A stretch of DNA of 64,000 nucleotides from contig CAVYZA010000034.1 in the NCBI GenBank assembly GCA_963772865.1, positions 291,550 through 355,549 on the forward strand. The letters are read 5' to 3'. The stretch is from an uncultured beta proteobacterium. GTDB taxonomy: Bacteria; Pseudomonadota; Gammaproteobacteria; Burkholderiales; SHXO01. Numbering within the stretch: position 1 is the stretch's first letter; each line of letters opens with the position of its first letter. Under the pieces are notes generated by a model. That model saw nothing but the letters and a program-made list of their open reading frames with translations. It was not told where the DNA came from and did no database searches. The position numbers were made by a program, and so were the translations under genes. Positions 2,754 to 44,205 of the stretch are shown here, piece by piece.

Positions 2754-2845
2754 CGTAGTCTCCTCCTCGTTGGGCGTGCGATTCCCCGCCACGCAGGCGG
2801 GCACGCCGGCAGTGTAGCGCGAGGGCCCCGCCCGTGACCAGCCGC

Positions 2846-8938: not shown

Positions 8939-9179
8939 GACTCGCTGCCTGGCGCGAATTCCCGCGCCGGTGCCGGCGATAAAGCCGTATGGATGAATGG
9001 GTTGGCCCACGGACCGAAAACGCGCCGGGTTGCCGAGAGGCCTGCAGAGGTCGCGACCGTGCTTGGCCACTGCCACTGCCACGAATAACGGCAGTCTGGC
9101 GGCAGCCCTTAGCCGGGTGTTGAAAAAAGCATTCGGGGCACCCGACCGAGCCGGGTGTGCGAAGCGGGAAGGTGTACGG

Positions 9180-20500: not shown

Positions 20501-23500
20501 CGGCGGAGTGTCGGAGTTCATGATGTAGCTCGCCGTGCCACCCAGGTTGCCGGCGAGCAGATCGTTGATCTGCATCAGCGTGCCGGTCAAGGTCACGCTA
20601 TTGCTCCCCGAGCCGCCCACCACCACACCAGTGGTCCCTGCGTTGACCGTGAGGGTTCCCGAGACGACCGACAAGGTGGCCATGAGACTGGCCGATCCCG
20701 CGTCCAAGTCGCCGATCGACAACCCAGTGCCCTGCAGTGCCAGGCTCACCTGCTCGCTCGCGCTGTAGCTGCCCGCCGCAATGGTTGCGCTGGGCGCGTC
20801 GTTGACGGCGCTCACGTTGATATTCATCGTCCGCGGCGTCGGGTCGGTGTCGACACCGCCGTTAGCGGTGCCCCCATCGTCTCGCACCTGGAACGTGAAC
20901 GCCGCATAGCCCGTGCCGTTCGTGTCCGCCGCTGGAGTGAACTTGAGGTTGCCGGCCGTGATACTGCCTGCGGTGATGTCTTGTCCTGCGGAGACTGCGA
21001 CCCCCGACAGCGTAAGAGTGCCTGCCCCGGGCAGCGCTGTGATGCGTACGACGTCCAGGCTATTCGCGGGACTGTCACTTAAATCAGCGAACCCGAAGTC
21101 CGCGACCGTAAACGTATACGCGACGTCCTCGCTGATCGTCACTGTGTTGCTGTTGCCTGCGGGCGGGTCGTTGACCGGATTGATGGTCAGTGTGACTGTT
21201 GCGATGTTCGAGTCGTTGCTGCCATCATTTGCTAAGTACGTGAAGCTATCTGCACCCGCATAGTCCGCCACCGGCGTATAGGTGAAGGTGCCGTCTGGAT
21301 TCAGGGTGAAGGCCGCAGCGTGTGTGGGGCCGCTCACCAGCAGCGCGGACAACGGTTGTCCGCTTGGGCTCGAATCGTTGGCGAGGACCCCGCTTGATCC
21401 TGTTGCCGTCTGGGCGGCACCAACGCTGAGGAACGCGTTGGTCATGGTCAGGTACTCGGCCTGAATCCACGCAGCGGAACGCGCGGCGATCGAAATGCGC
21501 GCCTCGTCCATGCCGCCGTGAAAGAACGAGCTACCACCGTCATCGTTCGATCCGATGGCTACGCTGTCTGAATTGGTGTTGGGAGTCGCGCTATTGAGAA
21601 AGTTGGCGATGCCCGAGGTGTTCGCGTCTTCTACCCCATCCAAGTAAATCCGGATGGCATTGGTAGAGAAATCGATCGTGGCGGCAATATAGTGCCAACC
21701 TGCTCCGAGAGGTGTATCGGTCGTGATAACCGTCGCTTTGTCTAGGTCATCGTCGGTCGAGCGTGCGACCACTTCGATGTTGTCGTTCGCGATCCGCAGT
21801 TGCGCGCGCGAATTGCCGGTCGGAATGCCGCCGTTGTCCCGGCTCGCCGCGATCACCGTTCCGTCAACAAGCGGATCGGTCGCCGTGTTGACCCACGCGG
21901 ACAGCGCGACGTAGCTGGTATTGTTTAGCAGCGGCCGATTCGTGCCCAGGTTGACGTAGTCGTCGGCACCGTCGAAGGCGAAGCCTCCTCCGATTATCCC
22001 CGTCGTGCCCGCGGCTCCATTCGTTGCGCTGCCTCCGAATGCGTTGGACGTGGAATCGCCGACGCTCGTGCCTGTGTCGGACATGTGATAGACAGCACGG
22101 AAGCCGTTGCCCGACCAGACTGCGGTCGGATCCGCTCCGGCGACTGCCGTCGCATTCCCGTAATACATCCAGATGGAATCCGAGCCGCTCGTATCGATCT
22201 GAGGCACCTTGACCCAGACATAAGAGTCGCCGGTTTCGTCCCATTTCTCGATCTCGTAGGCCAGCGGGGTCCCATCCGCGTCAAAGAAGCGCAGATCCTC
22301 ACCCGCGTCTCGCGTCTGCAGGTAATCGGTATTGCTGCTGTTGAGCGTCAAGAGCACGGGGAAATCTGACAGGTTCTGCGCGCCGGCAAACGCGTTGCCG
22401 GTAAACGTGATCTGTTTGCGCTCGCTCCATGCCGTATCCCACCAACCTATGTTGAGCGAACCGTCCTCGTCCAGGCTGTAGTTGTCTGCCGATGCAGTAG
22501 GAATGCTGGCGGCGTTAACAGTGATAGCGATGGAGTTGCCCTGCGATAGTGCGCCACCGGTCCCGGTGTTGCCGAGGTCGTTCGTGGTGATGCTGAGCGA
22601 AGCCGCACCGCTGAAACCGATCGTCGGGTCGAAAAACATGCCGTTCAGCGCGGCGTTGATATTGGCCACTGTGCCCGTAAACGTCATCGTGGCGTCGCCC
22701 GTGCCGTTACCAGTGCTAAATGTGAGGCCGGTGGTGCCCGCCAGGGTGAGTGTGCCGTTTGTCGCGGTCAGCGTGACCTGCACGGAGCTGGCGGCGGCAT
22801 CCACGTCCGCAATAGAGATGGCGTTGCCGTTGCCGCTCGAGAAAACGAGCGCCGTGTTCTGACCAGTGCCCTGCGCCGAGGGCACAGCGTTCACAGGCGC
22901 ATCGTTGACCGCGCTGATGTTGATGGTGGCGGTGTCCGATCCGGTCTTGGCGCCACCCGAGCCGTGTTGCCTCCGTCGTTGGCGAGCAGCGTGAGCGTAT
23001 CGCCGGCAGGCGGAGTGTCGGAATTGATGATGTAGCGTAGCGGTGCCGCCGAGGTTACCGGCCAGCAGGTTGTTGATCTGGGTCAGCGTCCCGGTCAGGG
23101 TCACGCTGTTGGTGCCCGAGCCCGATACCGCCGCACCGCTGGTGCCCGCGGTCACCGTGAGCGTGCCCGAAACCACCGAGAGCGTGGCCGTCACGCTGGC
23201 GCTGCCCGCATCCACGTCGGCGATCGACAAACCCGTCCCGTGCAAGGTCAGGCTGGTCTGCTCGGTCGCCGCATAGGTGGCCGGAGTGATCGTGGCCGTG
23301 GGCGCGTCGTTGACCGCGCTGATGTTGATGGTGGCGGTGTCCGATCCGGTCTTGGCGCCACCCGAGCCGGTGTTGCCGCCGTCGTTGGCGAGCAGCGTGA
23401 GCGTGTCGCTGGCAGGCGGAGTGTCGGAACTGATGATGTACGTAACCGTGCCGCTGAGGTTACCGGCCAGCAGGTTGTTGATCTGGGTCAGCGTCCCGGT

Positions 23501-23509
23501 CAGGGTCAC
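16358..23509 (-). CDS. Giant locus A, fragment 2 (2,383 codons)
   Basis: Continues the 135-aa repeat series. It contains a second DUF2341/LamG module (WWDTAWSERKQITF, DLRFFDADGTPLAYEIEKW, IWMYYGN), 8 more 135-aa repeats and the first 93-99-aa repeats. The last ~110 codons are out of frame (Arg/His-rich). Confidence 0.85.
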   Translation of the reverse strand: MTLTGTLTQINNLLAGNLSGTVTYIISSDTPPASDTLTLLANDGGNTGSGGAKTGSDTATINISAVNDAPTATITPATYAATEQTSLTLHGTGLSIADVDAGSASVTATLSVVSGTLTVTAGTSGAAVSGSGTNSVTLTGTLTQINNLLAGNLGGTATLHHQFRHSACRRYAHAARQRRRQHGSGGAKTGSDTATINISAVNDAPVNAVPSAQGTGQNTALVFSSGNGNAISIADVDAAASSVQVTLTATNGTLTLAGTTGLTFSTGNGTGDATMTFTGTVANINAALNGMFFDPTIGFSGAASLSITTNDLGNTGTGGALSQGNSIAITVNAASIPTASADNYSLDEDGSLNIGWWDTAWSERKQITFTGNAFAGAQNLSDFPVLLTLNSSNTDYLQTRDAGEDLRFFDADGTPLAYEIEKWDETGDSYVWVKVPQIDTSGSDSIWMYYGNATAVAGADPTAVWSGNGFRAVYHMSDTGTSVGDSTSNAFGGSATNGAAGTTGIIGGGFAFDGADDYVNLGTNRPLLNNTSYVALSAWVNTATDPLVDGTVIAASRDNGGIPTGNSRAQLRIANDNIEVVARSTDDDLDKATVITTDTPLGAGWHYIAATIDFSTNAIRIYLDGVEDANTSGIANFLNSATPNTNSDSVAIGSNDDGGSSFFHGGMDEARISIAARSAAWIQAEYLTMTNAFLSVGAAQTATGSSGVLANDSSPSGQPLSALLVSGPTHAAAFTLNPDGTFTYTPVADYAGADSFTYLANDGSNDSNIATVTLTINPVNDPPAGNSNTVTISEDVAYTFTVADFGFADLSDSPANSLDVVRITALPGAGTLTLSGVAVSAGQDITAGSITAGNLKFTPAADTNGTGYAAFTFQVRDDGGTANGGVDTDPTPRTMNINVSAVNDAPSATIAAGSYSASEQVSLALQGTGLSIGDLDAGSASLMATLSVVSGTLTVNAGTTGVVVGGSGSNSVTLTGTLMQINDLLAGNLGGTASYIMNSDTPPASDTLSLNVNDGGNTGSGGAQIGSASVAINIGAVNDAPTATITPASYAATEQVALVLHGTGLSITDPDAGGADITATLSVVSGALTVTAGTTGVTIGGSGTDSVTLTGTLVQINDLLAGNLGATATYIIGSDAPPATDTLTLGVNDGGNTGSGGAQTGSDSATINISAVNDPPTATITAGSYSATEQVSLALHGTGLSISDADAGPASLTATLSLVSGTLTVNAGTTGVVVGGSGGNTVTLTGTLVQINNLLAGNLGSTASYVINSDTPPASDTLTLSVSDGGNTGSGGAQSGSANVAINIGAVNDAPTATITPATYSAAEQTSLTLHGTGLSIADPDAGGADVTATLSVVSGALTVTAGTTGVTIGGSGTNSVTLTGTLAQINNLLAGNLGATAVYAISSDAPPATDTLTLSVDDAGNSGSGGAQSGSDAATINIAAVNDAPSATIAAGSYSASEQVSLALQGTGLSIGDLDAGSASLMATLSVVSGTLTVNAGTTGVVVGGSGSNSVTLTGTLMQINDLLAGNLGGTASYIMNSDTPPASDTLSLNVNDGGNTGSGGAQIGSASVAINIGAVNDAPTATITPASYAATEQVALVLHGTGLSITDPDAGGADITATLSVVSGALTVTAGTTGVTIGGSGTDSVTLTGTLVQINDLLAGNLGATAAYIMSSDAPATADTLTLSVNDGGNSGSGGALSGSDSATINISAVNDAPEATIGATSYVAAEQIPLVLSGTGLSIADVDAGTTSVTAMVSVVSGTLTATAGGTGVSIAGNGSNSITLTGTLTQINDLLVGAGGGALSYLINSDMPPASDTLTLSVNDGGNTGSGGAQSGSATATINIAAVNDTPSATIAAASYAATEQTSLALEGTGLSIADLDAGAGILTASLSVVSGTLNVSAGTTGVAVAGNGSGSITLTGTLAQINDLLAGNFAATASYVINSDTPPASDTLTLSVDDSGNTGSGGAQTASASVTIAITPVNDAPTGAAGIIGISIEDAVLTADTSGIGDPDGLGAVTYQWARSTDGGTTWNPILGATGSSYTLGDADVNAFIQMSLAYVDGQGNAESLSSPSLGPVSNVNDAPSGAVIVTGTVTEDQTLTADTSSIGDADGLGGFAYQWARSTDSGVTWNDITGETASTYVLGDADVGNLIQVSVSYTDGQGSAESLTSADVGPVANVNDAPTGVPTISGTVTEDQTLTANTAGIADADGLGAFSYQWLRNGAVIATATGSTYTLGDADVGTQISVQVSYTDGQGTPESRHLGADRGGGQRQRRAERACHRQRHSHGRSDPDRGHQRHRRCRRPGRASATSGCATRRTWTHRGRDGLHLHPGRCRRGHPDQRAGELHRRAGHCRERYLGADCGRWPTSTMPRRGCPPSAAR
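17556..20806. repeat. Coding tandem repeats, block II: 8 x 405 bp (135 aa), moderately diverged, with a 1,620-bp higher-order duplication
   Basis: VNDAP-encoding motifs occur every ~405 bp (17560, 17965, 18370, 18775, 19180, 19585, 19990, 20395, 20800). Region 18511-19188 is nearly identical to 20131-20808. Confidence 0.9.
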
Positions 23510-25745
23510 GCTGTTGGTGCCCGAGCCCGATACCGCCGCACCGCGTGGTGCCCGCGGTCACCGTGAGCGTGCCCGAGACCACCGAGAGCGTGGCCGTCAC
23601 GCTGGCGCTGCCCGCATCCACGTCGGCGATCGACAAGCCCGTGCCGTGCAAGGTCAGGCTGGTCTGCTCGGTCGCCGCATAGGTGGCCGGAGTGATCGTG
23701 GCCGTGGGCGCGTCGTTGACCGCGCTGATGTTGATGGTGGCGGTGTCCGATCCGGTCTTGGCGCCACCCGAGCCCGTGTTGCCTCCGTCGTTGGCGAGCA
23801 GCGTGAGCGTATCGCTGGCAGGCGGAGTGTCGGAGTTGATGATGTAGCTAGCCGTGCCGCTGAGGTTACCGGCCAGCAGGTTGTTGATCTGGGTGAGCGT
23901 CCCGGTCAGGGTCACGCTGTTGGTGCCCGAGCCCGATACCGCCGCACCGCTGGTGCCCGCGGTCACCGTGAGCGTGCCCGAAACCACCGAGAGCGTGGCC
24001 GTCACGCTGGCGCTGCCCGCATCCACGTCGGCGATCGACAAACCCGTCCCGTGCAAGGTCAAGCTGGTCTGCTCGGTCGCCGCATAGGTGGCCGGAGTGA
24101 TCGTGGCCGTGGGCGCGTCGTTGACCGCGCTGATGTTGATGGTGGCGGTGTCCGATCCGGTCTTGGCGCCACCCGAGCCCGTGTTGCCTCCGTCGTTGGC
24201 GAGCAGCGTGAGCGTATCGCTGGCAGGCGGAGTGTCGGAACTGATGATGTACGTAACCGTGCCGCTGAGGTTACCGGCCAGCAAGTTGTTGATCTGGGTC
24301 AGCGTCCCGGTCAGGGTCACGCTGTTGGTGCCCGAGCCCGATACCGCCGCACCGCTGGTGCCCGCGGTCACCGTGAGCGTGCCCGAAACCACCGAGAGCG
24401 TGGCCGTCACGCTGGCGCTGCCCGCATCCACGTCGGCGATCGACAAACCCGTCCCGTGCAAGGTCAAGCTGGTCTGCTCGGTCGCCGCATAGGTGGCCGG
24501 AGTGATCGTGGCCGTGGGCGCGTCGTTGACCGCGCTGATGTTGATGGTGGCGGTGTCCGATCCGGTCTTGGCGCCACCCGAGCCCGTGTTGCCTCCGTCG
24601 TTGGCGAGCAGCGTGAGCGTATCGCTGGCAGGCGGAGTGTCGGAACTGATGATGTACGTAACCGTGCCGCTGAGGTTACCGGCCAGCAGGTTGTTGATCT
24701 GGGTCAGCGTCCCGGTCAGGGTCACGCTGTTGGTGCCCGAGCCCGATACCGCCGCACCGCTGGTGCCCGCGGTCACCGTGAGCGTGCCCGAAACCACCGA
24801 GAGCGTGGCCGTCACGCTGGCGCTGCCCGCATCCACGTCGGCGATCGACAAACCCGTCCCGTGCAAGGTCAAGCTGGTCTGCTCGGTCGCCGCATAGGTG
24901 GCCGGAGTGATCGTGGCCGTGGGCGCGTCGTTGACCGCGCTGATGTTGATGGTGGCGGTGTCCGATCCGGTCTTGGCGCCACCCGAGCCCGTGTTGCCTC
25001 CGTCGTTGGCGAGCAGCGTGAGCGTATCGCTGGCAGGCGGAGTGTCGGAGCTGATGATGTAGCTAGCCGTGCCGCTCAGGTTACCGGCCAGCAGGTTGTT
25101 GATCTGGGTCAGCGTCCCGGTCAGGGTCACGCTGTTGGTGCCCGAGCCCGATACCGCCGCACCGCTGGTGCCCGCGGTCACCGTGAGCGTGCCCGAAACC
25201 ACCGAGAGCGTGGCCGTCACGCTGGCGCTGCCCGCATCCACGTCGGCGATCGACAAACCCGTCCCGTGCAAGGTCAAGCTGGTCTGCTCGGTCGCCGCAT
25301 AGGTGGCCGGAGTGATCGTGGCCGTGGGCGCGTCGTTGACCGCGCTGATGTTGATGGTGGCGGTGTCCGATCCGGTCTTGGCGCCACCCGAGCCGGTGTT
25401 GCCTCCGTCGTTGGCGAGCAGCGTGAGCGTATCGCTGGCAGGCGGTGTATTCGAGTTAATGACGTAGCTTGCCGTGGCGCTCAGGTTACCGGCCAGCAGG
25501 TTGTTGATCTGCGTGAGCGTGCCGGTCAGGGTCACGCTGTTGGTGCCCGAACCCGATACGGCCGCACCGGTGGTCCCCGCAGTCACTGTGAGCGTGCCGG
25601 AGACAACGGACAGGGTCGCTGTCACGCTGCCGCCGCCCGCGTCTACGTCGGCGATCGAAAGTCCGGTGCCATGCAGGGTCAGGCTGGCCTGCTCTGTGGC
25701 CGCGTAGCTGATTGGCGTGATCGTGGCGGTCGGTGCATCGTTGAC
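22896..25745. repeat. Coding tandem repeats, block I: 7 x 405 bp (135 aa), almost identical at nucleotide level
   Basis: The antisense ORFs 24088..24492 and 24493..24897 are each exactly 405 bp with near-identical translations. The unit is TATITPATYAATEQTSLTLHGTGLSIADVDAGSASVTATLSVVSGTLTVTAGTSGAAVSGSGTNSVTLTGTLTQINNLLAGNLSGT.SYI.SSDTPPASDTLTLLANDGGNTGSGGAKTGSDTATINISAVNDAP. Confidence 0.9.
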
Positions 25746-28700
25746 GGGATTGACCGTGATCGTGACCGTCGCGAGGTTGGAGTTGTTCGTGCCGTCGTTG
25801 GCCCGATAGGTAAAGGTGTCGGTGCCGCTGAAGTTGGCCGTCGGCGTATAGGTGAAGCCGCCATTGGCGTTGAGCGTGAACGAGGCTGCGTTCGAGGGGC
25901 CTCCGACCAACACAGCGGTGAGCGCGTCCCCGTTGGGATCGCTGTCGTTGCCAAGTACACCGATGCCTTGCGCGGCGCTGAACCCCACAAACGCATCTGT
26001 CATGGATAGGTACTGCGCCTTGATCCAGGCGGCAGAACGCACCTGGGTGGAGACGCGGGCTTCGTCGATGCTACCGTTGTAGTAGCCGTCGGTGCCGTTG
26101 GGCCAACCATTGGTCTTGTATCCGCCCAACCGCCAGTAGCCGTTGTAGTTCTCCGAGCTGGCGTTGGGCGAGGTGTCGACCAGCACGCCGTCGACGTACA
26201 GCGAGAGGGTATCGGTGCCGTCGTTGCGCACCCCTACGGCATAGTGCCAGGCGCCGTCGGCATAGTTGGTGGTCGAGTTGGCGACGTCCTCGCTGTCGGT
26301 CGGCTGGTAGTACGATCCGAAGTACAAACGGCCGTCCGTCCCGACGTAAAGGTGTCGATCCCAGTCCGGGCTGGCGGTGCCGGTCTGGTTGGTCTCGAAT
26401 CCGAGGATCTTCCTGCCGGCTGCCGAGCTCGTGCGGAACCACGCCTCGATGGTGTATTGCTGCGGGTTGGAGAACTGTGTCGTCGTGTACACCTGGGCGT
26501 TGGTGCCGTTGAAGTTCTGCCCGCTGGCTATCACCCCCGCCCCGTTGGTGGAGTTGCTGTTGATGCCATCGTTGGTTCCAGCCGAATCCTGCTCATCGGT
26601 GTTGAGGTGCCACACGCCGCTGAACCCGGCGTCCCAGACCGCAGTGGCATTCTGCGTGTCCGGCGCCGCGGCATTGCCGTAGTACATCCAGATGTAGTCG
26701 GAGCCGGATGACGCGTCGATCTGCGGAACGCTTACCCAGACGTACGATGTCCCGCTCTCGTTCCAGCTTTCGATCTCGTGCGCCAGAAGAGTCCCGTTGC
26801 TGTCAACGAAGCGCAGGTCCTGACCGGCGTTCTGCGTGAGCGCGTAGTTGATGCGCGTGCTGTCGAGCTCGACCAGCACCGCGAAGTTGGTCAGGTTCTC
26901 GGCCTGGCCGGAGTTGTCGAAGGTGAGCTGCTTGCGCTGGCTCCAGCTGGTGTTCCACCAGCTGGACGCTTGCGGGATCGTGAGCGTGCCCTCCTCGTTG
27001 ACGCTGTAGGCATCGTTGGTGGCCACGGGGGCCGTGCCCGCCACCGTGGCGTTCACGCCGAACTCCGAGGTGTTGTTGGAGCCGTCCGTGGCCGTTGCGG
27101 TAACGCGGTCGCCGAGCGCCAGGCCGCTCACGGTGAGCGACCCGCTGAAGTTGCCGCTGGCGTTGGCAGTCAGGAAGCCCAGGTAGACCTGGCCCTCGCC
27201 GTTCGTCCCCGCAGCGTCCGCGCTCTTGAAGAACTCGACCCGCGCCCCGGCGAAATCGGTATCGCCGGACGCAGTGCCGATGTATCCCGCCAGCGTGAGG
27301 GTCGTCCCGTTCAGGCTGGCCGTCTGGATCACGGGGAAGTCCATCAGCTGGTTGGGCTGCCCGGCCGTCTTCGCGCCATCGTTGGCGGTGACCCCGTTGT
27401 CCAGCAAGTCGATGCCCAGATCGCCGTTGGAGAAGATAGCGTTGCCCAGCACAGCGTTGCCGGTACCGGCGGTGGCGCTCAGCGCCACGCCGTCCAAGGC
27501 GTTGTACGCGATGGTGTTGCCGGCTCCGGCGCCCGTGCCTCCGATGGTGTTGTTCGCCGCCGCGTTGTCGATCCACACGCCCTGTCTGCTGTTGGCGATC
27601 GCGGCAGTACCCGCAGCATTGGTGCCGATCAGATTCCCCAGCACGACGTTGCCGGTCGTGCCGGAGCCGGTAATCCGCACGCCTTCTCCGTTGTTCCCGG
27701 ACATCACGTTGCCGGCGCCCGCCGCGGTGCCTCCGATCGTGTTATTGGTTGCGCTGCCGAAGATCGCCACACCCTGATTGGTGTTGCCAAGATCGACCGC
27801 GCCGGTCACGTCCAGACCGATGTAGTTGCCGAGCACCACGTTGCTCGAGGTGCCCGCGTTGCGGATCTGGATACCGTCGACGGTATTGGCTGAGATGATG
27901 TTGCGATCTGCAGCTGTGGTGCCCCCGATCGTGTTGTTGGTCGAACCGAGGATGATCGACACGCCGACCAGATTTCCGAGACCCACCGTGCCCGCCGCGC
28001 TGGTTCCCAGGAAGTTGCCCTTGATGACATTGTTCGACGAGGCGCTGATCAGGATGCCTTCCTGCGCGAAGCGATTGATGACCAGCCCCTTGATCGTGCT
28101 GCCCGAGCTGCCGGCCGCGAGCGTCAGGCCTGCCGAGGCACCGGCTCCAATACCGTTCAGCTCGACCACTGGTGTGCCGGCGAAGTCGGGCGCGCTGGTG
28201 CCATCGATGATCACGGCGTCAACGATGTTCGGCAACGCCGAGCTCAAGGCGATGGTGTGCGGTCCGGCACCCGCGATGTTGAAGTAGATTCGGTCGGGGC
28301 TGTTGGCGTTCGCATTGGCAGTATTGTTGGCGGCGAAGATCGCCTCCCGCAGCGAGATCTTGCCGTCCGTGCCTTTGTCCGACAGCAATTGGCTGATCGT
28401 GACCGTGCCCGACGCAAAGGACGAGTCGTAAGCGTTGCTGACCGTGTCGACCACCAAGGCGGTGGCGTAACGCTGAAAGAACACACCACTGCCGTCGCCG
28501 GTGCCGTTGCCCGCCCAAGCGACCACCGTCTGCCCGACAGAGTTCATAGCGACAGCAGGACTGAGTTGATCGCCCGCAGTGGTGCTGTTGACGCGCACTT
28601 CTCCGCCGTTGGCTGTGCCGTCGGCGTTGTACTCCTGTTTGTAGATGCCCCAGGTGCCGGCCGCATCCTGGTTTTGGCTGGCCCATACCACCATGAAGTT

Positions 28701-30341
28701 GCCATTGACATCTATCGCCACGGCCGGGTGCTGCTGTTCGCCGGCGGTGGTGCTGTTGACGCGGAACTCGCTGCCTTGTGCAACGCCGGAGGCGTTGTAG
28801 CGCTGCGCATAGATGCCGCTGCTGCTGGCGGCGTCCTGGCCGAAGCTTCTCCAGACCACCACGTAGTCACCATCGGGCGCCATGGCCACCGATGACCAGT
28901 CCTGGTCACCGCTGGTGGTGGTGTTTACGCGTACTTCGCCGCTCAGAGCAGCGCCTGCCGCGCTAAAGCGCCGCATCCATACGCCCGAGCCGGTGGCATC
29001 GGCGTTGGAGAAGGTGACGACGAAGTTGCCCGCCGCGTCCATCGCCACGCTGTCGGGCCACTGGTTGCCAGTGGTGGTGGTGTTGACGGCAATCTGTCCA
29101 CCCTGCGCAACACCGGAAGCGTTGTAGCGCTGAGCGTAGACACCTTCGAGGTCGCCATCTTGACCGGCGCTCGCCCAGACCACCACGAATGCACCACTGG
29201 CGTTCATGGCGATAGTCGGGTTGTCTTGAGCGTTGGCGGTAGTACTGTTTACTCGGAACTCCGAGCTCAGCGCAGTGCCCGCAGCATTGTAGCGGCGGGC
29301 ATAGATCCCCGTGCCACTGCCGTCCTGGTTGTTGCTCCGCCACGCCACCACGAAGTTGCCGCTGGCGTCCATCGCCACCGTGGGCGAATCCTGCGAGTCT
29401 GCAACCGTCTGGTTGACCCGCGTTTCGGCGCCTTGCGCCACACCGCTGGCGTTGTAACGCTGGAAGAACACGCCGTTCGTGTCACCGGTGCCTTCGCCGG
29501 TCCACACCGCCACGTAGTTGCCGTTCGCGTCCACCGCCACAACTCGCGGCGGGGCAAACGCGTTGGTGTCCTGAGCGCCCGTGGTGGTGGTGTTGACCTT
29601 GGTCTCGCCTCCCACCGCGACGCCCTGTAGAGTGGCGTTCCAATCCAGGACCACCGACTGGCTGAACACGATCGATGTGTCGATCTGTCCCGCGTGGAAC
29701 TCGAGATCCCAGTCGCCGCCGAGCTTGGCGTTGCCCGTCAGGTCGTCGCTTGCGGCGACGTCCGCGCCGGTCAGCCGGGCTAGTGCCTCGACCAGCGAGC
29801 GGCCGTTGTCGGTTTGCGCGACGTTGCAGCCATAGATCAGGATGTCGGCGTCGGCGGTGAGCGCCGCGCCCCAGCTCTTGATCTTCGCGCCGTTCTTGAG
29901 CAGGGAGTCGAAGTCCAGGCTGGTCTTGCCCAGCTGCACCGACCCGTCCGCGCCATGGGAGACGAGGTGGACGGCGCTGACGTCATCGCGGCCAGCCAGC
30001 GTCTGGGTGATCTGGGCGACGCCGTCCTTGCCGTCATCGAGCAGCACCACCTCGATGTCGCGCCCACTGCCCTGGGTGCGGATGTCTGCGATCAGCTTCT
30101 CGTAATCGGGCGTCGCCGTTTCCACGAATACGATCTCGTGGCGACTTGCCTGGACCTTCTGCGCGGAGGTCTGGTTGAACTCGCCGCTGGGGTCGACGGT
30201 GCGCTGCTCGGCCTGGACGTCTAAGCCGGTATCGGGCACGAGTGCCGGCGCGAAGTCGGCCGAGTACAAGATGCGCGGCTCGATCTCCTCGATCCGAGGC
30301 CCTCGCACTTGACGCTGCTGTCTTGCCGCTTTCCTGCTCAT
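23460..30341 (-). CDS. Giant locus A, fragment 1 (2,293 codons)
   Basis: Starts MSRKAARQQRQVRGPRIEEIEPRILYSADFAPA. The DUF4347-type block reads HEIVFVETATPDY...VHLVSHGADGSVQLG...ILIYGCNVAQ...GADVAASDDLTGNAKLGGDWDLE. About 8 repeats follow of the form E.RVN.TT.G.Q..P.VA....G.FVVVW. Next come ISLREAI plus NNTIGG-type beta-helix turns. The DUF2341/LamG region has WWNTSWSQRKQLTF, DLRFVDSNGTLLAHEIESW and IWMYYGN. The 135-aa repeats follow. Confidence 0.85.
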   Translation of the reverse strand: MSRKAARQQRQVRGPRIEEIEPRILYSADFAPALVPDTGLDVQAEQRTVDPSGEFNQTSAQKVQASRHEIVFVETATPDYEKLIADIRTQGSGRDIEVVLLDDGKDGVAQITQTLAGRDDVSAVHLVSHGADGSVQLGKTSLDFDSLLKNGAKIKSWGAALTADADILIYGCNVAQTDNGRSLVEALARLTGADVAASDDLTGNAKLGGDWDLEFHAGQIDTSIVFSQSVVLDWNATLQGVAVGGETKVNTTTTGAQDTNAFAPPRVVAVDANGNYVAVWTGEGTGDTNGVFFQRYNASGVAQGAETRVNQTVADSQDSPTVAMDASGNFVVAWRSNNQDGSGTGIYARRYNAAGTALSSEFRVNSTTANAQDNPTIAMNASGAFVVVWASAGQDGDLEGVYAQRYNASGVAQGGQIAVNTTTTGNQWPDSVAMDAAGNFVVTFSNADATGSGVWMRRFSAAGAALSGEVRVNTTTSGDQDWSSVAMAPDGDYVVVWRSFGQDAASSSGIYAQRYNASGVAQGSEFRVNSTTAGEQQHPAVAIDVNGNFMVVWASQNQDAAGTWGIYKQEYNADGTANGGEVRVNSTTAGDQLSPAVAMNSVGQTVVAWAGNGTGDGSGVFFQRYATALVVDTVSNAYDSSFASGTVTISQLLSDKGTDGKISLREAIFAANNTANANANSPDRIYFNIAGAGPHTIALSSALPNIVDAVIIDGTSAPDFAGTPVVELNGIGAGASAGLTLAAGSSGSTIKGLVINRFAQEGILISASSNNVIKGNFLGTSAAGTVGLGNLVGVSIILGSTNNTIGGTTAADRNIISANTVDGIQIRNAGTSSNVVLGNYIGLDVTGAVDLGNTNQGVAIFGSATNNTIGGTAAGAGNVMSGNNGEGVRITGSGTTGNVVLGNLIGTNAAGTAAIANSRQGVWIDNAAANNTIGGTGAGAGNTIAYNALDGVALSATAGTGNAVLGNAIFSNGDLGIDLLDNGVTANDGAKTAGQPNQLMDFPVIQTASLNGTTLTLAGYIGTASGDTDFAGARVEFFKSADAAGTNGEGQVYLGFLTANASGNFSGSLTVSGLALGDRVTATATDGSNNTSEFGVNATVAGTAPVATNDAYSVNEEGTLTIPQASSWWNTSWSQRKQLTFDNSGQAENLTNFAVLVELDSTRINYALTQNAGQDLRFVDSNGTLLAHEIESWNESGTSYVWVSVPQIDASSGSDYIWMYYGNAAAPDTQNATAVWDAGFSGVWHLNTDEQDSAGTNDGINSNSTNGAGVIASGQNFNGTNAQVYTTTQFSNPQQYTIEAWFRTSSAAGRKILGFETNQTGTASPDWDRHLYVGTDGRLYFGSYYQPTDSEDVANSTTNYADGAWHYAVGVRNDGTDTLSLYVDGVLVDTSPNASSENYNGYWRLGGYKTNGWPNGTDGYYNGSIDEARVSTQVRSAAWIKAQYLSMTDAFVGFSAAQGIGVLGNDSDPNGDALTAVLVGGPSNAASFTLNANGGFTYTPTANFSGTDTFTYRANDGTNNSNLATVTITVNPVNDAPTATITPISYAATEQASLTLHGTGLSIADVDAGGGSVTATLSVVSGTLTVTAGTTGAAVSGSGTNSVTLTGTLTQINNLLAGNLSATASYVINSNTPPASDTLTLLANDGGNTGSGGAKTGSDTATINISAVNDAPTATITPATYAATEQTSLTLHGTGLSIADVDAGSASVTATLSVVSGTLTVTAGTSGAAVSGSGTNSVTLTGTLTQINNLLAGNLSGTASYIISSDTPPASDTLTLLANDGGNTGSGGAKTGSDTATINISAVNDAPTATITPATYAATEQTSLTLHGTGLSIADVDAGSASVTATLSVVSGTLTVTAGTSGAAVSGSGTNSVTLTGTLTQINNLLAGNLSGTVTYIISSDTPPASDTLTLLANDGGNTGSGGAKTGSDTATINISAVNDAPTATITPATYAATEQTSLTLHGTGLSIADVDAGSASVTATLSVVSGTLTVTAGTSGAAVSGSGTNSVTLTGTLTQINNLLAGNLSGTVTYIISSDTPPASDTLTLLANDGGNTGSGGAKTGSDTATINISAVNDAPTATITPATYAATEQTSLTLHGTGLSIADVDAGSASVTATLSVVSGTLTVTAGTSGAAVSGSGTNSVTLTGTLTQINNLLAGNLSGTASYIINSDTPPASDTLTLLANDGGNTGSGGAKTGSDTATINISAVNDAPTATITPATYAATEQTSLTLHGTGLSIADVDAGSASVTATLSVVSGTLTVTAGTTRCGGIGLGHQQRDPDRDADPDQQPAGR

Positions 30342-30742: not shown

Positions 30743-30829
30743 CTAGCCATCCGGCTGATTCGAGTACAGGATGCCTGGCTCGATCTCCTCGACCACGGGG
30801 CGGCGTTTCCTTGCAGGCCCGGCCTTCAT
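30743..30829 (-). CDS. 28-codon mini-ORF encoding only the giant-protein leader motif (leader-only peptide or 5' gene remnant)
   Basis: Runs from the ATG at 30829 to the TAG at 30745..30743: MKAGPARKRRPVVEEIEPGILYSNQPDG. A possible SD (agaagg) lies ~9 nt upstream. It is too short for the ORF track. Confidence 0.4.
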   Translation of the reverse strand: MKAGPARKRRPVVEEIEPGILYSNQPDG

Positions 30830-31214: not shown

Positions 31215-32054
31215 CTACCCGGCGCCGGCTTGGCGGCCGTTGTCGGCGGTGGACATGCCCTCGAACTCGAGCTTGCAGCGCAGGCCCGGGGGCAGCGCGT
31301 TGTCCGGATTGGGCAGCTCGAGACGCACCCGGAAGCTGTTGCTCGCGGCATCGATGACGCGGTCCACGACGATGACATTGGCGGTGCGCACTTCGGCATC
31401 GACCATGTCTGGCTTGACCGTGGCGACCATGCCGGTCTTGATCTTGCTGAAGTAGCTGGACGGCACGATCACTTCGACACGCAGCGGGTCGATGGTCGCT
31501 ACCTTCACTAGCGCCTTCTCCTCGACCCGTTCGCCTTCGGACAGGTACTTCTCCACCACCACGCCGCTGAGTGGGCTGCGGATCGTGCGCTGGTTCATCT
31601 GCGCGTTCGCCAGCGCCAGCTCGTGCTTGGCCTGGCGCTGCGACTCGCGCGCCTGGCGCAGCCGCATCTCCGCGACTTCCGCTTCGGTGACGGCCTGATC
31701 CCGGATCTGCTGCGCGACGAAGTTCTTCTGATACAGGTCCTGAGTCCGCACGCGCTTCTTTTGCGCGAAGTCGTGATTGGACGCGGCAGCCTGCAATTCC
31801 GCGTAGGACTCGGCTCGCACTTTTGCTGAGGCTACTGCGGCACGCTCGACATCCTGATTGAGCAGGACCAGCGGTTGACCCTTCTTGACGAAGTCGCCGC
31901 GCTCCACCATCACCTGGTCGATCACGCCCACCACTTGAGCGCCGACCTCGGCTTCCTGGAAGGGTTGAATCAGACAACCCAGTGGCTCGGCGCGAACCAG
32001 GGCAGCGCCGCACAACACTGCGCCGGTCGCGCAGAGCATGATCAGTCGTGCCAT
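31215..32054 (-). CDS. Small HlyD/membrane-fusion-type periplasmic adaptor protein
   Basis: ORF 31215..32153. An internal ATG at 32054 gives the signal peptide MARLIMLCATGAVLCGAALVRA. It has a lipoyl-like hairpin (VERGDFVKKGQPLVLL ... IRSPLSGVVVEKYLSEGERV), a coiled-coil segment and a beta-barrel segment. Confidence 0.8.
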   Translation of the reverse strand: MARLIMLCATGAVLCGAALVRAEPLGCLIQPFQEAEVGAQVVGVIDQVMVERGDFVKKGQPLVLLNQDVERAAVASAKVRAESYAELQAAASNHDFAQKKRVRTQDLYQKNFVAQQIRDQAVTEAEVAEMRLRQARESQRQAKHELALANAQMNQRTIRSPLSGVVVEKYLSEGERVEEKALVKVATIDPLRVEVIVPSSYFSKIKTGMVATVKPDMVDAEVRTANVIVVDRVIDAASNSFRVRLELPNPDNALPPGLRCKLEFEGMSTADNGRQAGAG

Positions 32055-32209
32055 TGTCACTTTCCTTTGACGTTGCGGTTGCATGGTGTTTCTCATGCAC
32101 GTCACAATGCAAGGACCGGGCCGAGCTCGAGGCGCACGAGCTGGTGAGATCATCAGCTTGTCACGCTACGCGTGGGACCCGTCATCGGACGAATTCCCAT
32201 CACCCGGCA

Positions 32210-32648: not shown

Positions 32649-34475
32649 CTACGCTGCGGCCTGCGGCAAACTCCTGCGCACGAGCTGAGCGAACTGCTCC
32701 GCGGGCGCAGGACGGCTGCATAGGTAGCCTTGAAACTCGTTGCAGCGGCGCTGCGCCAGGAACTGCAGCTGCTCCTTGGTTTCGACGCCCTCCGCCACCA
32801 CGTTCATGCCGAGCTCGCGGCCCAGCACGAGGATGGCGCCGACGATCGCGCTGTTCTGCCGCTCCCCGGGGACGCCGCGCACGAAGGTGCGGTCGATCTT
32901 GAGCTCGTCGATGGGGAAGCGGCTCAGGTAGGTGAGCGACGAGTAGCCGGTGCCGAAGTCGTCCACCGACAGGCGCACCCCCATCTCCTTGATCTCGTGC
33001 AGCGTGGAGATGGTGTCTTCGCCGTCGTCCATCAGCATGCTCTCGGTCAGCTCCAGACACAGAAGCTGCGGCGGAATCCGGCTTCTCTCCACCGCGCCGC
33101 GCACCGCGTGCCAGATGGTGCCGCTCTTGAACTGCGGCACCGCCACGTTGACCGAGACCGACAGCTTGGGCAGTCCCTGCTGGTGCCACGCCGCCACCTG
33201 TGCACACGCCGTGCGCAGAACCCACTGGCCGATCTCGACGATGAGCCCGGTCTCCTCGGCGATGGGGATGAACTTGTCGGGTGACAGGATGCCGAGATCG
33301 GGATGCTTCCAGCGCAGCAGCGCCTCCGCACCGGTGATCCGTCGGGTAGCGATCTCGACCTTGGGCTGATAGAACAGCACGAATTCGCCCTGGTCGACCG
33401 CCTTGCGCATCTGCCCTTCCAGCGTCATGCGCTCGGTGGCATGCGCGTTCATCTCGTTCGAGAAGAACGTGTAGGTCTTGCGCCCGCGCTGCTTGGACTG
33501 ATACATGGCGACTTCGGCGTTTTTGAGCAGCGTGTCGGCATCCTCGCCATCCCCAGGCGACACGGCGATGCCGATGCTCGCGCTCATCCGCAGCTTGTGG
33601 CCGTCCACGTCGAACGGCTCGGACAGCGCGTTCTGGACGCGCCGCGCCATGGCGGTGGCATCGTCCACCTTGGTCAAGTTGTGCAGATCGGGCAGCAGCG
33701 CCGCGAAGCCGTTGCCGCCGATGCGGGAAAACCCTACAGGCGCTTCACGCCCGGTCGCATGCGACGGCTTGAACGAGGCGAACACGGTTTCCAGGATCTT
33801 GGCAACGCCGGCCAACAGGTGGTCGCCGACGCGATGACCCAGGGAGTCGTTCACCTGCTTGAAGCGGTCCAGGTCGATGTGCAGCAAGCTGCAGGCGCGC
33901 GACGAGGTGGCAGCGCTGCGGGCGAGCGCAGATTCGACTTCGACGCGGAACTTCTTGCGGTTGGGCAGGCCGGTCAACGGGTCGGAGTCCACCAGGCGGT
34001 CCTGGTAGGCTTTGAACGCGAGCGCGTTGCGCAGGCGCAGGCGCAGCTCGCTCGGGTCTACCGGCTTGGTCAGCAGATCGGTGGCCCCCAGCTCCAGCGC
34101 TTTCAGCTTGGCGGTCGGATCGCTCTCCGCGGTCAGTATGATCACCGGCGTATAGCGCAGCTCCTCGTGCCCGCGCACTTCCGCCAGGATGTCGAAGCCC
34201 GACACCTCCGGCATCATCAGGTCCAGGAGCAGAATGTCCGGGCGATGCTGCACGAACAGTCCCATCGCCTCCTTGGGCTGGCTGGTGGTGATGAAGCTCA
34301 CGTAGCCCGCCTCTTCCAGGTAGGTCTGTACCACCTCCAGCATCAACGGATCGTCGTCCACCATCATCACGGTGGAGGTCCGCAGCGATGTGAAGGCCGT
34401 CCGGGTGCCGGCCGTGGAGGCCGGGGAGCCGAGCTGGGCGGCCACTCTGGTCGGGATGCTCTCTGCGCTGTTCAT
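32649..34475 (-). CDS. Response regulator REC + degenerate GGDEF (GGNGF) + EAL c-di-GMP phosphodiesterase
   Basis: The REC domain reads VMMVDDDPLMLEVV...ILLLDLMMPEVSGFDIL...TKP. The GGDEF position reads RIGGNGFAALL. The EAL motifs are intact: GAEALLRW, ELTES, DDFGTGYSSL, KIDRTFV, EGVET, QGYL. Confidence 0.9.
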   Translation of the reverse strand: MNSAESIPTRVAAQLGSPASTAGTRTAFTSLRTSTVMMVDDDPLMLEVVQTYLEEAGYVSFITTSQPKEAMGLFVQHRPDILLLDLMMPEVSGFDILAEVRGHEELRYTPVIILTAESDPTAKLKALELGATDLLTKPVDPSELRLRLRNALAFKAYQDRLVDSDPLTGLPNRKKFRVEVESALARSAATSSRACSLLHIDLDRFKQVNDSLGHRVGDHLLAGVAKILETVFASFKPSHATGREAPVGFSRIGGNGFAALLPDLHNLTKVDDATAMARRVQNALSEPFDVDGHKLRMSASIGIAVSPGDGEDADTLLKNAEVAMYQSKQRGRKTYTFFSNEMNAHATERMTLEGQMRKAVDQGEFVLFYQPKVEIATRRITGAEALLRWKHPDLGILSPDKFIPIAEETGLIVEIGQWVLRTACAQVAAWHQQGLPKLSVSVNVAVPQFKSGTIWHAVRGAVERSRIPPQLLCLELTESMLMDDGEDTISTLHEIKEMGVRLSVDDFGTGYSSLTYLSRFPIDELKIDRTFVRGVPGERQNSAIVGAILVLGRELGMNVVAEGVETKEQLQFLAQRRCNEFQGYLCSRPAPAEQFAQLVRRSLPQAAA

Positions 34476-34491: not shown

Positions 34492-36989
<2,498 letters not shown>

Positions 36990-36993
<4 letters not shown>

Positions 36994-37520
36994 GCGGTCA
37001 CCTCCGTGCCTTCAGTTTGAGCCTCGCCGACAGCGTCGCTCTCGACAGGTGGCGCCGGCTCCTCGGCCACTGCACCTTTGCCTGTAAGGCCGCCCAGCAG
37101 CGCATCGCGGGCTTTCCCGAACAGCTTCTCCAGCGGGTCTTCCTCGAATCCGTCCTCGTCGTCGGAGTCGCCGCCGCGCGCCAGCACCGGCATGGGGTCC
37201 ACCGCGTGCCACGCCGGCATCGACGACAGCAGGCTCGACAGCAGCAGCCCGCCGCGCAGCAGCCAGATCACGTACCCGACCGACAGGCTGCCGGTGACCG
37301 CCACGCTGGAGACCACCAGATTGCCTTCGACTTCGATCTTGCCGTCGATCTGCTTGCGCATGTGATCCAGCTCGCCGACCCACTCGGCGTTGCGCAACGT
37401 GCTGGTCACCGCTTCCATCGAGCCGGGGCCAAAACGCTCGATTCCGGGCCCGGTTGCCATGCTGATGCCGATCGAGGCAGTTTCCAGGCCAGTGGCTGCC
37501 GCCGCGCCAGGCGGCGCCAC
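36990..37520 (-). CDS. Giant locus B, C-terminal fragment (conserved TM module + acidic tail)
   Basis: ..[69 protein letters not shown].. It is homologous to the C-terminus of locus A. Confidence 0.8.
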
Positions 37521-38128
37521 CCTGCAGCCGAGAACTGCTGCACGGCGTCGCCCTGCGCGCTCAGCTGCGTGGAGGCTGTTCGCCCGCTGCCCGTGTCGGC
37601 GAGCACAATGCGCAGCTCGGCTGCACGCGTCGCGGCGCTGCTTGCGGCCGCCGTGATGGTCGTAGTCGCTGCTTCGGGCGCGATCTCGCCTTGCGGCGGC
37701 GGAGCGGCCTGGCTGCTCGAGCTGTCGTCCGACTTGCCGCCGTCATCGCTCGAATCCGACCCGCCGCCACCGGGGTCTGCCGGTTTCACAACCGGCTCCG
37801 GGGGTGGTGGTGGTGGCGGCGGCGGTGGTGGCGGCGGCGGCGGTGGTGGAGGCGGCGGTGGGGCCGCGATCGTCATGCTCATCGTGAACGGGCCAACGCT
37901 CGCGCCCGCGCCATCGCTGAGCGTGAGCGTCAATCCGTCCGTCCCGCCTGCCGCACCCGTGTGAACGTAGCGCACCAGGCCGTTCGTGACATCCGCTTGC
38001 GTGAACGTGCCGTTGACTCCCAGCGGCGTGCTCGCCACGTATAGCGTGCCCGTGCTCGGAGGCACGGTCACGGTGTAGGTGAGCTGCGTCGGTCCCTCTT
38101 CTATGTCGGTCGCCTGAAGCATGCGCAC
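37406..38128 (-). CDS. Giant locus B, fragment 7 (cadherin-like domain, 21xPro, acidic/Ser-rich linker)
   Basis: LQATDIEEGPTQLTYTVTVPPSTGTLYVASTPLGVNGTFTQADVTNGLVRYVHTGAAGGTDGLTLTLSDGAG, then P21, then ADPGGGGSDSSDDGGKSDDSSSS. Confidence 0.75.
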   Translation of the reverse strand: MRMLQATDIEEGPTQLTYTVTVPPSTGTLYVASTPLGVNGTFTQADVTNGLVRYVHTGAAGGTDGLTLTLSDGAGASVGPFTMSMTIAAPPPPPPPPPPPPPPPPPPPPPEPVVKPADPGGGGSDSSDDGGKSDDSSSSQAAPPPQGEIAPEAATTTITAAASSAATRAAELRIVLADTGSGRTASTQLSAQGDAVQQFSAAGWRRLARRQPLAWKLPRSASAWQPGPESSVLAPARWKR

Positions 38129-38660
38129 CGCCGATGGTGAGCGTCCCGTGGTAACCCAGCGATCCGCCCGCTCCGAGGGTGAGCACGGGAGCGTCGTCGA
38201 CCGGGTTGACGGCGATGACCGCAGTCTGCACGGCTCCGCCCAGCCCGGTATCGCTGGCCGAGATGGAAGCCTGGACGTCGAACCTGCCGCTGGCCGTGCT
38301 GTCCGCGCTCGGCGTGAACTTCAGTCCGGCGAGCCCCTGCGCGGCACTGATGAACGCGCCGTCCGCGATCGCGGTGACGCCGTCGTTCTGATACAAGGTG
38401 CCGCCGCCGATCCCCGTGATCTTGAAGTGCGTCACCGACGCGCCGTCAGCGGCGTTGCGGATGATGACCAGCCCGGTTGTGCTTTGCGTGTCCTCGTTGG
38501 TGATCGTGCTCGTCACGGTGGGCGTGTCCGCCACCGGCGCGACGGTCACGGTGAAGGTCTGGCTGGTGAGCATTGACTCCGTCCGACACCCGCAACGTGA
38601 CGGTCGTCGTCCCGTACGTGTTAGCCAGCGGCGTGACGGTGATGGTGCGGCTCGCACCAC
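37743..38660 (-). CDS. Giant locus B, fragment 6
   Basis: The good segment reads LTSQTFTVTVAPVADTPTVTSTITNEDTQSTTGLVIIRNAADGASVTHFKITGIGGGTLYQNDGVTAIADGAFISAAQGLAGLKFTPSADSTASGRFDVQASISASD... Both ends are out of frame. Confidence 0.7.
   Translation of the reverse strand: MVRAAPSPSRRWLTRTGRRPSRCGCRTESMLTSQTFTVTVAPVADTPTVTSTITNEDTQSTTGLVIIRNAADGASVTHFKITGIGGGTLYQNDGVTAIADGAFISAAQGLAGLKFTPSADSTASGRFDVQASISASDTGLGGAVQTAVIAVNPVDDAPVLTLGAGGSLGYHGTLTIGGAHASGDRHRRGTDAAHLHRDRASEHGHAIRGEHAAGSQRHVHASGCHERPGALRSHGCGRRDGRIDAHAQRWRGRERWPVHDEHDDRGPTAASTTAAAATTAAATTTTPGAGCETGRPRWRRVGFER
37799..37861 (-). repeat. Uninterrupted run of 21 proline codons (CCN)21
   Basis: The plus strand reads cgg ggg tgg tgg tgg tgg cgg cgg cgg tgg tgg cgg cgg cgg cgg tgg tgg agg cgg cgg tgg. 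On the minus strand this is 21 consecutive Pro codons in the frame of ORF 37406..38128. Confidence 0.9.
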
Positions 38661-43804: not shown

Positions 43805-44205
43805 CGTGATGGCGCCGGTCTGGGCAGTTGATGGCGAATGCTCCGCCGGTGTTGCCGGCGGTGATCGCGTAGCTCAGCCCCGGCACGGCCGCGCCCAGCG
43901 TGATCCCTGCCGGATCCGACAGCAGGCCCGTGTGAAACGACCGTGGCCGTGCCGGTGCCGTCCAGGTTGACGCGGCGGATGCGGTCGAGGTCGTCCTCGG
44001 TCCAGTACAGCTTGCCGTGAGCGGTGTCGACCACCAGCCCGTTGATGCCGTTGCTGGTCGAGACGAAAGTCGTCACCGCCCCCGAGCCGTCCAGCGCGGC
44101 CCGACCGATCCGGCCGCCGGCCTTGTCGGCCCAGTACATCTTGTTGCCGGCCACGTCGAGCGCGATGCTCACGGGGTTGCCGATGCCGCTCACCAGCGTC
44201 TGCAT
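43753..44205 (-). CDS. Giant locus B, fragment 3 (YWTD blades 4-6)
   Basis: MQTLVSGIGNPVSIALDVAGNKMYWADKAGGRIGRAALDGSGAVTTFVSTSNGINGLVVDTAHGKLYWTEDDLDRIRRVNLDGTGTATVVS. The tail is out of frame. Confidence 0.75.
   Translation of the reverse strand: MQTLVSGIGNPVSIALDVAGNKMYWADKAGGRIGRAALDGSGAVTTFVSTSNGINGLVVDTAHGKLYWTEDDLDRIRRVNLDGTGTATVVSHGPAVGSGRDHAGRGRAGAELRDHRRQHRRSIRHQLPRPAPSRWPTARCSTSRARPATC

Follow-up and report, generated by a model that had tools for sequence, protein, structure and literature searches.

The 64,000-nucleotide stretch of an uncultured betaproteobacterium analyzed here (contig CAVYZA010000034.1; hereafter the window) encodes two giant proteins on its minus strand, A (~5,600 codons, 13566..30341) and B (~4,900 codons, 36990..51726), and this account concerns the short leader with which both begin. 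The translations of both genes open with a basic stretch, followed by an identical run of 16 residues, EEIEPRILYSADFAPA. The first open reading frame (ORF) of gene A runs from 30341 to 23460 and its product starts with MSRKAARQQRQVRGPRIEEIEPRILYSADFAPA; that of gene B runs from 51726 to 49360, the product starting with MERRAQPRRRPLVEEIEPRILYSADFAPA. The leader of A consists of the basic N-region MSRKAARQQRQVRGPR (30294..30341) and the core IEEIEPRILYSADFAPA (30243..30293), that of B of the N-region MERRAQPRRRPL (51691..51726) and the core VEEIEPRILYSADFAPA (51640..51690). Both match the NCBIfam model NF012209, "LEPR-XLL" ("LEPR-8K"), at 20.3 bits for A and 18.5 bits for B against a curated cut-off of 17, and a leader hidden Markov model (HMM) of our own at 44.7 and 52.1 bits, respectively. 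The motif starts at residue 17 in A and at residue 13 in B, so that in both very large proteins it occupies the extreme N-terminus, the location typical of this family. The leader motif is already catalogued and is not a new one.

The original prediction, made from the letters of the window, had described 15 identical residues with nearly identical DNA beneath them. The identity is genuine, although the run measures 16 residues and not 15, and 44 of the 48 bases that encode it agree between A and B. Each of the four differing bases (ATC/ATT, TTG/CTC, TCG/TCT) is synonymous, which points to selection at the level of the peptide rather than of the DNA, and not to a recent gene conversion. Outside the leader, the two proteins are 54% identical over their N-terminal 250 residues. 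A different explanation would hold that the leader is an ordinary or cryptic Sec or Tat signal, or else a chance or DNA-level similarity (a recombination patch, for example) with no role for the peptide. It draws on the basic N-region, on the RRR of B and on a duplicated remnant of the leader at an insertion site upstream of gene A. This third copy, a 28-codon ORF (MKAGPARKRRPVVEEIEPGILYSNQPDG, 30743..30829, minus strand) in which the near-invariant arginine is replaced by glycine, has as its orthologue in a related contig, L088, the true start of the giant gene. Compared with L088, the window carries an insertion of ~470 nucleotides within the sequence encoding the leader, and the leader is present twice, L088 10038-10069 aligning at two places; gene A now starts with a new ATG and a new basic stretch. 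Against a chance or DNA-level similarity stand the exclusively synonymous codon differences and the conservation of the peptide across phyla with unrelated DNA. Against a conventional signal stands the lack of a hydrophobic core: over the first 70 residues, the Kyte-Doolittle mean of a 15-residue segment peaks at 0.77 in A and at 0.61 in B, and the median length of the longest apolar stretch among 234 leaders is 4 residues. Of the parts of a type I (Sec) signal peptide, both leaders have the basic n-region and neither has the hydrophobic h-region, which would measure ~7-15 residues. With regard to Tat, B has RRRP without the consensus S/T-R-R-x-F-L-K or an h-region, and A has no RR pair. The earlier statement that the leader is neither a Sec nor a Tat signal withstood this analysis. 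A Sec or Tat signal was rejected on hydropathy, and we regard this whole group of explanations as extremely improbable.

The leader is broadly conserved. Among 120 homologues of DUF4347, the domain that comes after the leader in A and B, the motif is present on nearly every intact N-terminus, with the consensus RRRP-[VIL]-[VILF]-E-E-[LI]-E-P-R-[ILV]-L-[YFL]-S-A-D; the motif that comes after the basic stretch can be written more generally as [VIL]-E-x-[LI]-E-P-R-[ILV]-L-[YFL]-S-A-D. A 42-column profile of the leader, searched against 1.84 billion representative proteins, matched 1254 clusters at E ≤ 0.001. The best 150 of the 1254 all begin inside the N-terminal ~100 residues, and 149 do so no later than residue 54; because the profile derives from the DUF4347 type, these best 150 matches are biased to that type. 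Across 234 examples the median start of the motif is residue 15, and the stretch of up to 15 residues preceding it has a median net charge of +4, a basic N-region being present in 89%. Over ~1.5 Mb of related loci the leader HMM gave 33 matches of at least 12 bits, and none in the reversed control (maximum 6.3 bits). Together with the NF012209 scores and the profile search, this places the match far above what chance would give. A leader-only search of a word-indexed protein database returned 13 short fragments. Scanning DUF4347 proteins and related loci with a leader HMM, as had been suggested with the original prediction, thus found the leader conserved in orthologues and not absent from them. 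The placement of the leader immediately before DUF4347 had to be amended: a variable linker of ~35 residues separates the two in A and B, and in 190 homologues this linker measures 21-110 residues (median 36). In the AlphaFold2 (AF2) model of the leader with DUF4347, residues 1-60 have no secondary structure (pLDDT 55-70) beside a confidently predicted DUF4347, a pattern typical of linear motifs that are read in trans. We found no function proposed for LEPR-XLL in the literature, the motif being mentioned only in passing, including in one metatranscriptome paper. It occurs on giant symbiosis proteins of 20-36k residues in 'Chlorochromatium aggregatum' (bioRxiv 10.64898/2026.03.19.712371) and at the N-terminus of a ~8000-residue Vibrio protein that has RTX and serralysin domains at its C-terminal end (PMC10868602).

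Upstream of B, in this order on the minus strand, lie a GAF-HlyD gene (58359..56428), a PqqD/M50-HlyD gene (56285..54141) and a SecA-like gene (54038..52056), which we refer to as core genes 1 to 3. On the other side of B, the same strand carries a hybrid histidine kinase gene, a response regulator-GGDEF-EAL gene, the HlyD adaptor gene that is core gene 4 (32153..31215) and then gene A. Core gene 1 fuses a GAF domain to an HlyD-type membrane-fusion protein (MFP), or adaptor (Pfam GAF and HlyD_3/HlyD_D23). Core gene 2 joins a domain like PqqD and the RiPP recognition element (RRE; RiPP, ribosomally synthesized and post-translationally modified peptide) to an M50 (site-2-protease-type) domain and a MexA/AcrA-like adaptor (Pfam M50, HlyD). 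Its N-terminal 412 residues match the NCBIfam model daptide_HExxH (NF041824) at 3e-51, below the cut-off of that model, and Pfam M50 scores 24.1 bits, under its cut-off of 27.2. Among 58 relatives, 56 match Pfam M50 at E ≤ 0.01 and 46 match Pfam PqqD (best 1.7e-7), and H208, E209, H212, N302, N304, P305 and D310 are invariant in 58 sequences. They make up the two zinc-site motifs, HExxH and NxxPxxxxDG, of a polytopic membrane domain, as is characteristic of M50/site-2 proteases. The PqqD-like domain likewise stands in a protein of the pathway, as an RRE does, and PGAP calls the orthologues 'PqqD family'. The AF2 model of core gene 2 (pLDDT 83) has a beta3-alpha3 N-domain at residues 23-96 (three strands and three helices), followed by a helical membrane bundle, one further membrane helix and the adaptor. 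The latter matches MexA, AcrA and MacA in Foldseek (E 1e-11), and the alpha-hairpin modeled at residues 494-547 is of the kind that docks TolC. The length of the protein is nearly fixed, ~714-716 residues among the best matches.

Core gene 3 encodes a truncated SecA paralog of ~660 codons (SecA_DEAD, SecA_PP_bind), with the first nucleotide-binding domain (NBD1), the preprotein cross-linking domain and NBD2. The gene is read in four frames, and the GEGKT, DEAD and TNMAGRGTD motifs are kept. SecA and SecA2 models match it, all far below their cut-offs, and the alignment of an intact orthologue covers only SecA residues ~15-580, so the paralog lacks the regions by which SecA engages SecY. PGAP labels it 'prepilin peptidase' or 'DEAD/DEAH box helicase', and the public annotation of the core parts is generic or wrong. 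Core gene 4 encodes a periplasmic adaptor of the HlyD/RND type with a signal peptide (TIGR01730, 145.9 bits). In the window it lies directly upstream of giant gene A, and in L001-L003 and most of the seeded loci described below its orthologue comes after the SecA paralog and before the giant gene. The 64-kb window contains no TolC-family gene. It encodes a single ABC exporter (9180..11078), an MsbA-like and distant one, and the conserved clusters examined contain no ABC transporter gene.

The linkage of leader and core was assessed in two sets of loci. In eight loci seeded on the substrate (DUF4347 and leader), the full core (GAF-HlyD, M50-HlyD, SecA-like, HlyD) lies directly upstream in four, the fourth adaptor alone is present in two, and two have no core within 10 kb. 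The second set, seeded on the M50-HlyD gene alone, comprised 80 genome loci from Beta-, Gamma-, Alpha- and Deltaproteobacteria, Nitrospira, Myxococcota, Flavobacteriales, Methylomirabilia and Acidobacteria. The order of the four core genes is almost universal in these loci, and core gene 1 is present in 79 of the 80. Thirteen loci were too short to judge the leader neighbor, leaving 67 informative ones, of which 26 have a leader-bearing ORF on the same strand whose start lies 13-1698 nucleotides past the last core gene. The leader gene adjoins the core in two more loci, directly upstream and on the same strand in L032 and divergently in L057. TolC/OEP genes come after the core in Methylosinus, in Thalassospira and in two Nitrospira loci (L044, L072); together with the alpha-hairpin adaptor of core gene 2, this is the composition of a tripartite system of MFP and outer-membrane factor. 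The PqqD-like/M50 protein, which the original prediction had named as the candidate partner of the leader, is thus genetically linked to leader-bearing giants across many phyla. Of the two roles proposed there, recognition or cleavage tag, the leader behaves like the first; the second enters the mechanism below as a probable step.

A second architecture was found among loci of the M50-HlyD set that appeared 'leaderless', 28 of which have a DUF3467 gene just before the core. In 17 leaderless loci (11 of them with DUF3467), a giant ORF on the same strand extends beyond the beginning of the 10-kb flank. This upstream gene could be followed to its start in five complete annotated plasmids of the second architecture, from Methylosinus, Pontibrevibacter, Thalassospira, Pseudosulfitobacter and Mesorhizobium. 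In all five, its product measures 4,033-12,918 residues and begins with the leader, and in three PGAP names it 'LEPR-XLL domain-containing protein'. None of the five giants has DUF4347, and their C-termini have nothing in common. Since these giants share the leader, and neither DUF4347 nor a C-terminus, the leader is the one feature common to all giants encoded beside the core. The association of leader with DUF4347 is lineage-specific, the alphaproteobacterial substrates being without this domain. The DUF3467 gene (~100 codons) always lies between the giant LEPR-XLL gene and GAF-HlyD (L089, L091-L094 and 28 of L004-L083), and SapC genes are found in three clusters. The idea that DUF3467 might be a SecB-like chaperone was dropped, as neither a search of PDB profiles nor an hhalign comparison with E. 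coli SecB returned anything.

The DUF4347 domain itself raises the possibility that the leader serves its own protein. The domain spans residues 70-238 of A (29628..30134, minus strand; Pfam E=3.9e-56) and 66-233 of B (51028..51531, minus strand; E=2.3e-54). AF2 predicts for that of A an alpha/beta fold like those of caspases and the cysteine protease domain (CPD), with pLDDT above 93. Foldseek matches it to Tce1, caspases and legumain (E 5e-5 to 1e-3), and the nearest solved structure is that of Tce1, a type VI secretion effector of P. aeruginosa. H129 (in SHG) and C172 (in YGC) are invariant. The predicted caspase-like fold with its His/Cys dyad has the hallmarks of a clan CD cysteine protease and suggests that DUF4347 is a putative self-processing cysteine protease at the N-terminus of an adhesin. 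The cysteine protease domains of MARTX and TcdB cut just N-terminal to themselves. By analogy, the leader could be the substrate or pro-peptide of the adjoining DUF4347 protease, cut after the invariant leucine or the aromatic residue. Besides the fold and the invariant dyad, this explanation has on its side the invariant leucine followed by [YFL]-S-A in the motif, the presence of DUF4347 in 47 of the 51 top leader proteins of at least 250 residues (found with the profile built from the DUF4347 type), and the description of Tce1, itself a DUF4347 protein, as a putative cysteine protease resembling the CPD of TcdB (PMC13323088). On the other side, the leader occurs without DUF4347 and beside the same core in L004, L080, L026, L032 and the five plasmid giants, and self-processing is for this reason not its general role; we rejected a DUF4347 self-cleavage site as its main role on these grounds. 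Furthermore, the linker is long and variable, the residue that would occupy P1 varies (Y/F/L), unlike in clan CD proteases, and the leader is not docked onto DUF4347 in the AF2 model. Self-processing as the explanation of the leader is in our estimate very unlikely.

In our assessment, the leader is rather likely to be the substrate-recognition tag, probably cleaved, of a dedicated envelope-spanning machine for export and processing. The machine would consist of the GAF-MFP, the PqqD/RRE-M50-MFP, the truncated SecA-type ATPase and the periplasmic MFP, four proteins that look like an exporter with a built-in leader peptidase and that would be expected to work with a TolC-type outer-membrane channel. 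From the domain content we infer the component that would bind the tag, the removal of the tag and the direction of transport. The unstructured N-terminal tag would be bound in the cytoplasm, where it would most likely contribute an extra beta-strand to the PqqD/RRE domain, beside the M50 active site. The SecA-like motor would feed the giant chain N-terminus first, the three adaptors and TolC would carry it over the periplasm and the outer membrane, and the M50 domain would remove the tag. In a broader form, which we advance tentatively and at somewhat under an even chance, LEPR-XLL would be the cleavable N-terminal signal of an unrecognized secretion pathway for proteins of 4,000-13,000 residues. 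This pathway would have a type-I-like MFP/TolC conduit in which a truncated SecA and an RRE-M50-adaptor replace the ABC transporter, and would be widespread in Proteobacteria, Nitrospira, Myxococcota and other phyla. Our literature searches found no relevant paper on the combination of SecA-like, HlyD, M50 and PqqD with a giant protein. The link of LEPR-XLL to a conserved four-gene machine is new with respect to the literature searched, the motif itself being known.

Several points weigh against an export tag. The evidence is genomic context and domain prediction throughout. The SecA paralog is absent from the cluster in L010 and in Thalassospira despite their leader-bearing neighbors, so the receptor may be another component, or the paralog may be dispensable. 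No giant gene lies within 10 kb of some cores (for example L008, L061 and L072), and some cores lie beside radical-SAM, SapC or 2OG-oxygenase genes; the machine may therefore accept other cargo. No core lies within that same distance of two DUF4347/leader genes. M50 proteases usually cut membrane-embedded segments, whereas the leader is non-hydrophobic, and LEPR-XLL proteins are also common in Planctomycetes. Finally, the Vibrio protein with LEPR-XLL at one end and RTX at the other (PMC10868602) hints that some leader proteins exit C-terminus first, by a classical type I route. The large leaderless ORFs near cores (L008, L061, L072 and others) are unrelated housekeeping genes and were set aside.

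The Vibrio protein also favors a different role for the leader, retention and release. The giants would be exported C-terminus first, a leader docked on the PqqD/RRE domain would keep the adhesin on the cell, and a cut by M50, possibly gated by the GAF domain and the neighboring cyclic di-GMP (c-di-GMP) enzymes, would release it, in analogy to LapA/LapG/LapD. The signalling genes of the locus are compatible with such control. A hybrid histidine kinase (34492..36993) and a response regulator-GGDEF-EAL protein (32649..34475), both on the minus strand, are encoded between the two giant genes; the pair also lies beside the cluster, syntenically, in L003 and L088, and GGDEF genes are among the neighbors. 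This neighborhood points to a possible c-di-GMP control of the adhesins. The GAF sensor on one adaptor and the fast-folding alpha/beta DUF4347 that comes after the leader in the betaproteobacterial type would also suit retention. It is harder to reconcile with the absence of an ABC exporter from every cluster, with C-termini that share no signal where the N-terminal tag is universal, and with a SecA-type motor whose preprotein-binding domain suggests threading from N to C; moreover, the window showed no homologue of LapG or LapD. Retention and release is thus an unlikely alternative, and we retain the export tag as the preferred reading. Further signalling genes at 12000..13532 and 11268..11861 (minus strand) encode PAS-GGDEF and a weak match to an HD domain (22.2 bits, at the Pfam cut-off). 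The window as a whole gave no Rfam match in a scan aimed at a c-di-GMP riboswitch or similar element upstream of the giants.

The remainder of the giants is adhesin-like. Protein A contains cadherin-like, Big_9, LamG and DUF2341 domains, and protein B contains DUF7948, SBBP, cadherin and beta-helix domains. Towards the C-terminus both have, in this order, Cadherin_3, a proline-rich linker, a conserved hydrophobic segment and an acidic tail. The segment lies at 13866..13982 in A (MALSVGVVWWASRVSGLLGSLLASAPAWRHIDPLPVVGR) and at 37176..37286 in B, both on the minus strand, with the acidic tail after it. The hydrophobic segment recurs in 10 giants of the betaproteobacterial type and is absent from the alphaproteobacterial giants. 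Its role may be that of a membrane anchor or of a second signal; as the signal of the system as a whole it was rejected, being confined to the betaproteobacterial type. In protein B, ~22 consecutive prolines (AAPPPPPPPPPPPPPPPPPPPPPPEPVVKP; ORF 37406..38128, minus strand) follow the last Cadherin_3 domain and precede the C-terminal segment. Domain scans of A and B gave no HemolysinCabind match, and neither protein has the GGxGxD-type repeats of an RTX-type type I substrate, nor does the conserved cluster include an ABC exporter.

Both giant genes are split by frameshifts, each into 4-7 overlapping ORFs. The pieces of A are 23460..30341, 16358..23509, 14941..16701 and 13566..14885, and those of B are 49360..51726, 43874..49615, 41144..43804, 38446..41610, 37743..38660, 37406..38128 and 36990..37520. 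The GC content at third codon positions is 0.80-0.85 in three of the four pieces of A and only 0.67 in 14941..16701. Near-identical contigs from short-read soil metagenomes differ from the window by 1-nucleotide indels at 53024 and 53974 and by single gaps between them, at the places where the SecA frames switch. These frameshifts accordingly look like assembly errors and not pseudogenization, and most frameshifts of the window are probably such errors in intact genes. The fragmentation fits an error-prone long-read assembly. The related ENA contigs L002 and L087 are fragmented alike, and the gene for a periplasmic binding protein is also split (1465..1923 and 1902..3131). Downstream of gene A, on the minus strand, lie genes for a 901-residue DUF3857/transglutaminase-core protein (3217..5922) and a 543-residue ORF product without a family match (7451..9082).

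To our knowledge, ABC-driven type I systems with C-terminal signals are the only case in which the export of the very largest bacterial proteins, adhesins and symbiosis factors with as many as tens of thousands of residues, is understood. LEPR-XLL is a catalogued and unexplained tag on many such giants, those of 'Chlorochromatium aggregatum' included, and as a leader it could serve to direct very large cargo. With the tag tied to a specific, conserved four-gene machine, a mere label of annotation becomes a hypothesis on secretion that can be tested, and the PGAP annotation of the SecA paralog is corrected. Culturable carriers exist, namely Piscinibacter sakaiensis 201-F6, Uliginosibacterium flavum, Thalassospira marina and Mesorhizobium ciceri.

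Several known systems share features with the one described here. The closest at the level of the motif is the LEPR-XLL family itself (NF012209), which is the same motif, N-terminal on very large proteins; for this sequence signature we found neither a function nor a partner. The fold and His/Cys dyad of DUF4347 are those of the MARTX and TcdB CPDs and of Tce1, a likeness that concerns the domain next to the leader and not the leader. With the type I RTX/LapA adhesins the system has in common a giant Ca-binding repeat adhesin as cargo, MFPs, TolC and nearby c-di-GMP genes. It differs from these adhesins in the N-terminal position of the conserved signal, in having no ABC transporter in the cluster, and in having no RTX repeats or shared C-terminal signal. 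The accessory SecA2 systems (SecA2/SecY2, mycobacterial SecA2) similarly place a second SecA beside a very large surface protein with an unusual N-terminal signal. However, the paralog described here, of ~630-660 residues, is not full-length and lacks the helical wing domain, the two-helix finger and the C-terminal tail, and the clusters examined contain no SecY-like gene, neither SecY2 nor Asp genes being present. In contrast to the SecA2 of Gram-positive bacteria, it belongs to diderm hosts and is paired with HlyD adaptors and TolC. The M50 leader peptidases of RiPP pathways (YydH, daptide HExxH NF041824) have the PqqD-type fold and the intact HExxH that are also present in core gene 2. RiPP systems act on a short precursor with modifying enzymes, whereas here the presumed substrate is a giant structural protein of 4,000-13,000 residues, the protease is fused to a periplasmic adaptor, and the window encodes no modifying enzymes. 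In colicin V export (CvaAB-TolC) and other peptidase-containing ABC exporters, a non-hydrophobic N-terminal leader is recognized and cut by a built-in peptidase acting with an MFP and TolC. The logic that we propose is that of these double-glycine exporters, a leader tag read by a machine with a membrane-fusion protein and TolC. In place of their ABC transporter and C39 peptidase, an M50 protease and a PqqD/RRE domain are fused to an adaptor and accompanied by two further adaptors and a SecA-type ATPase, and in place of small peptides the cargo would be proteins of 4,000-13,000 residues that carry an unrelated leader motif.

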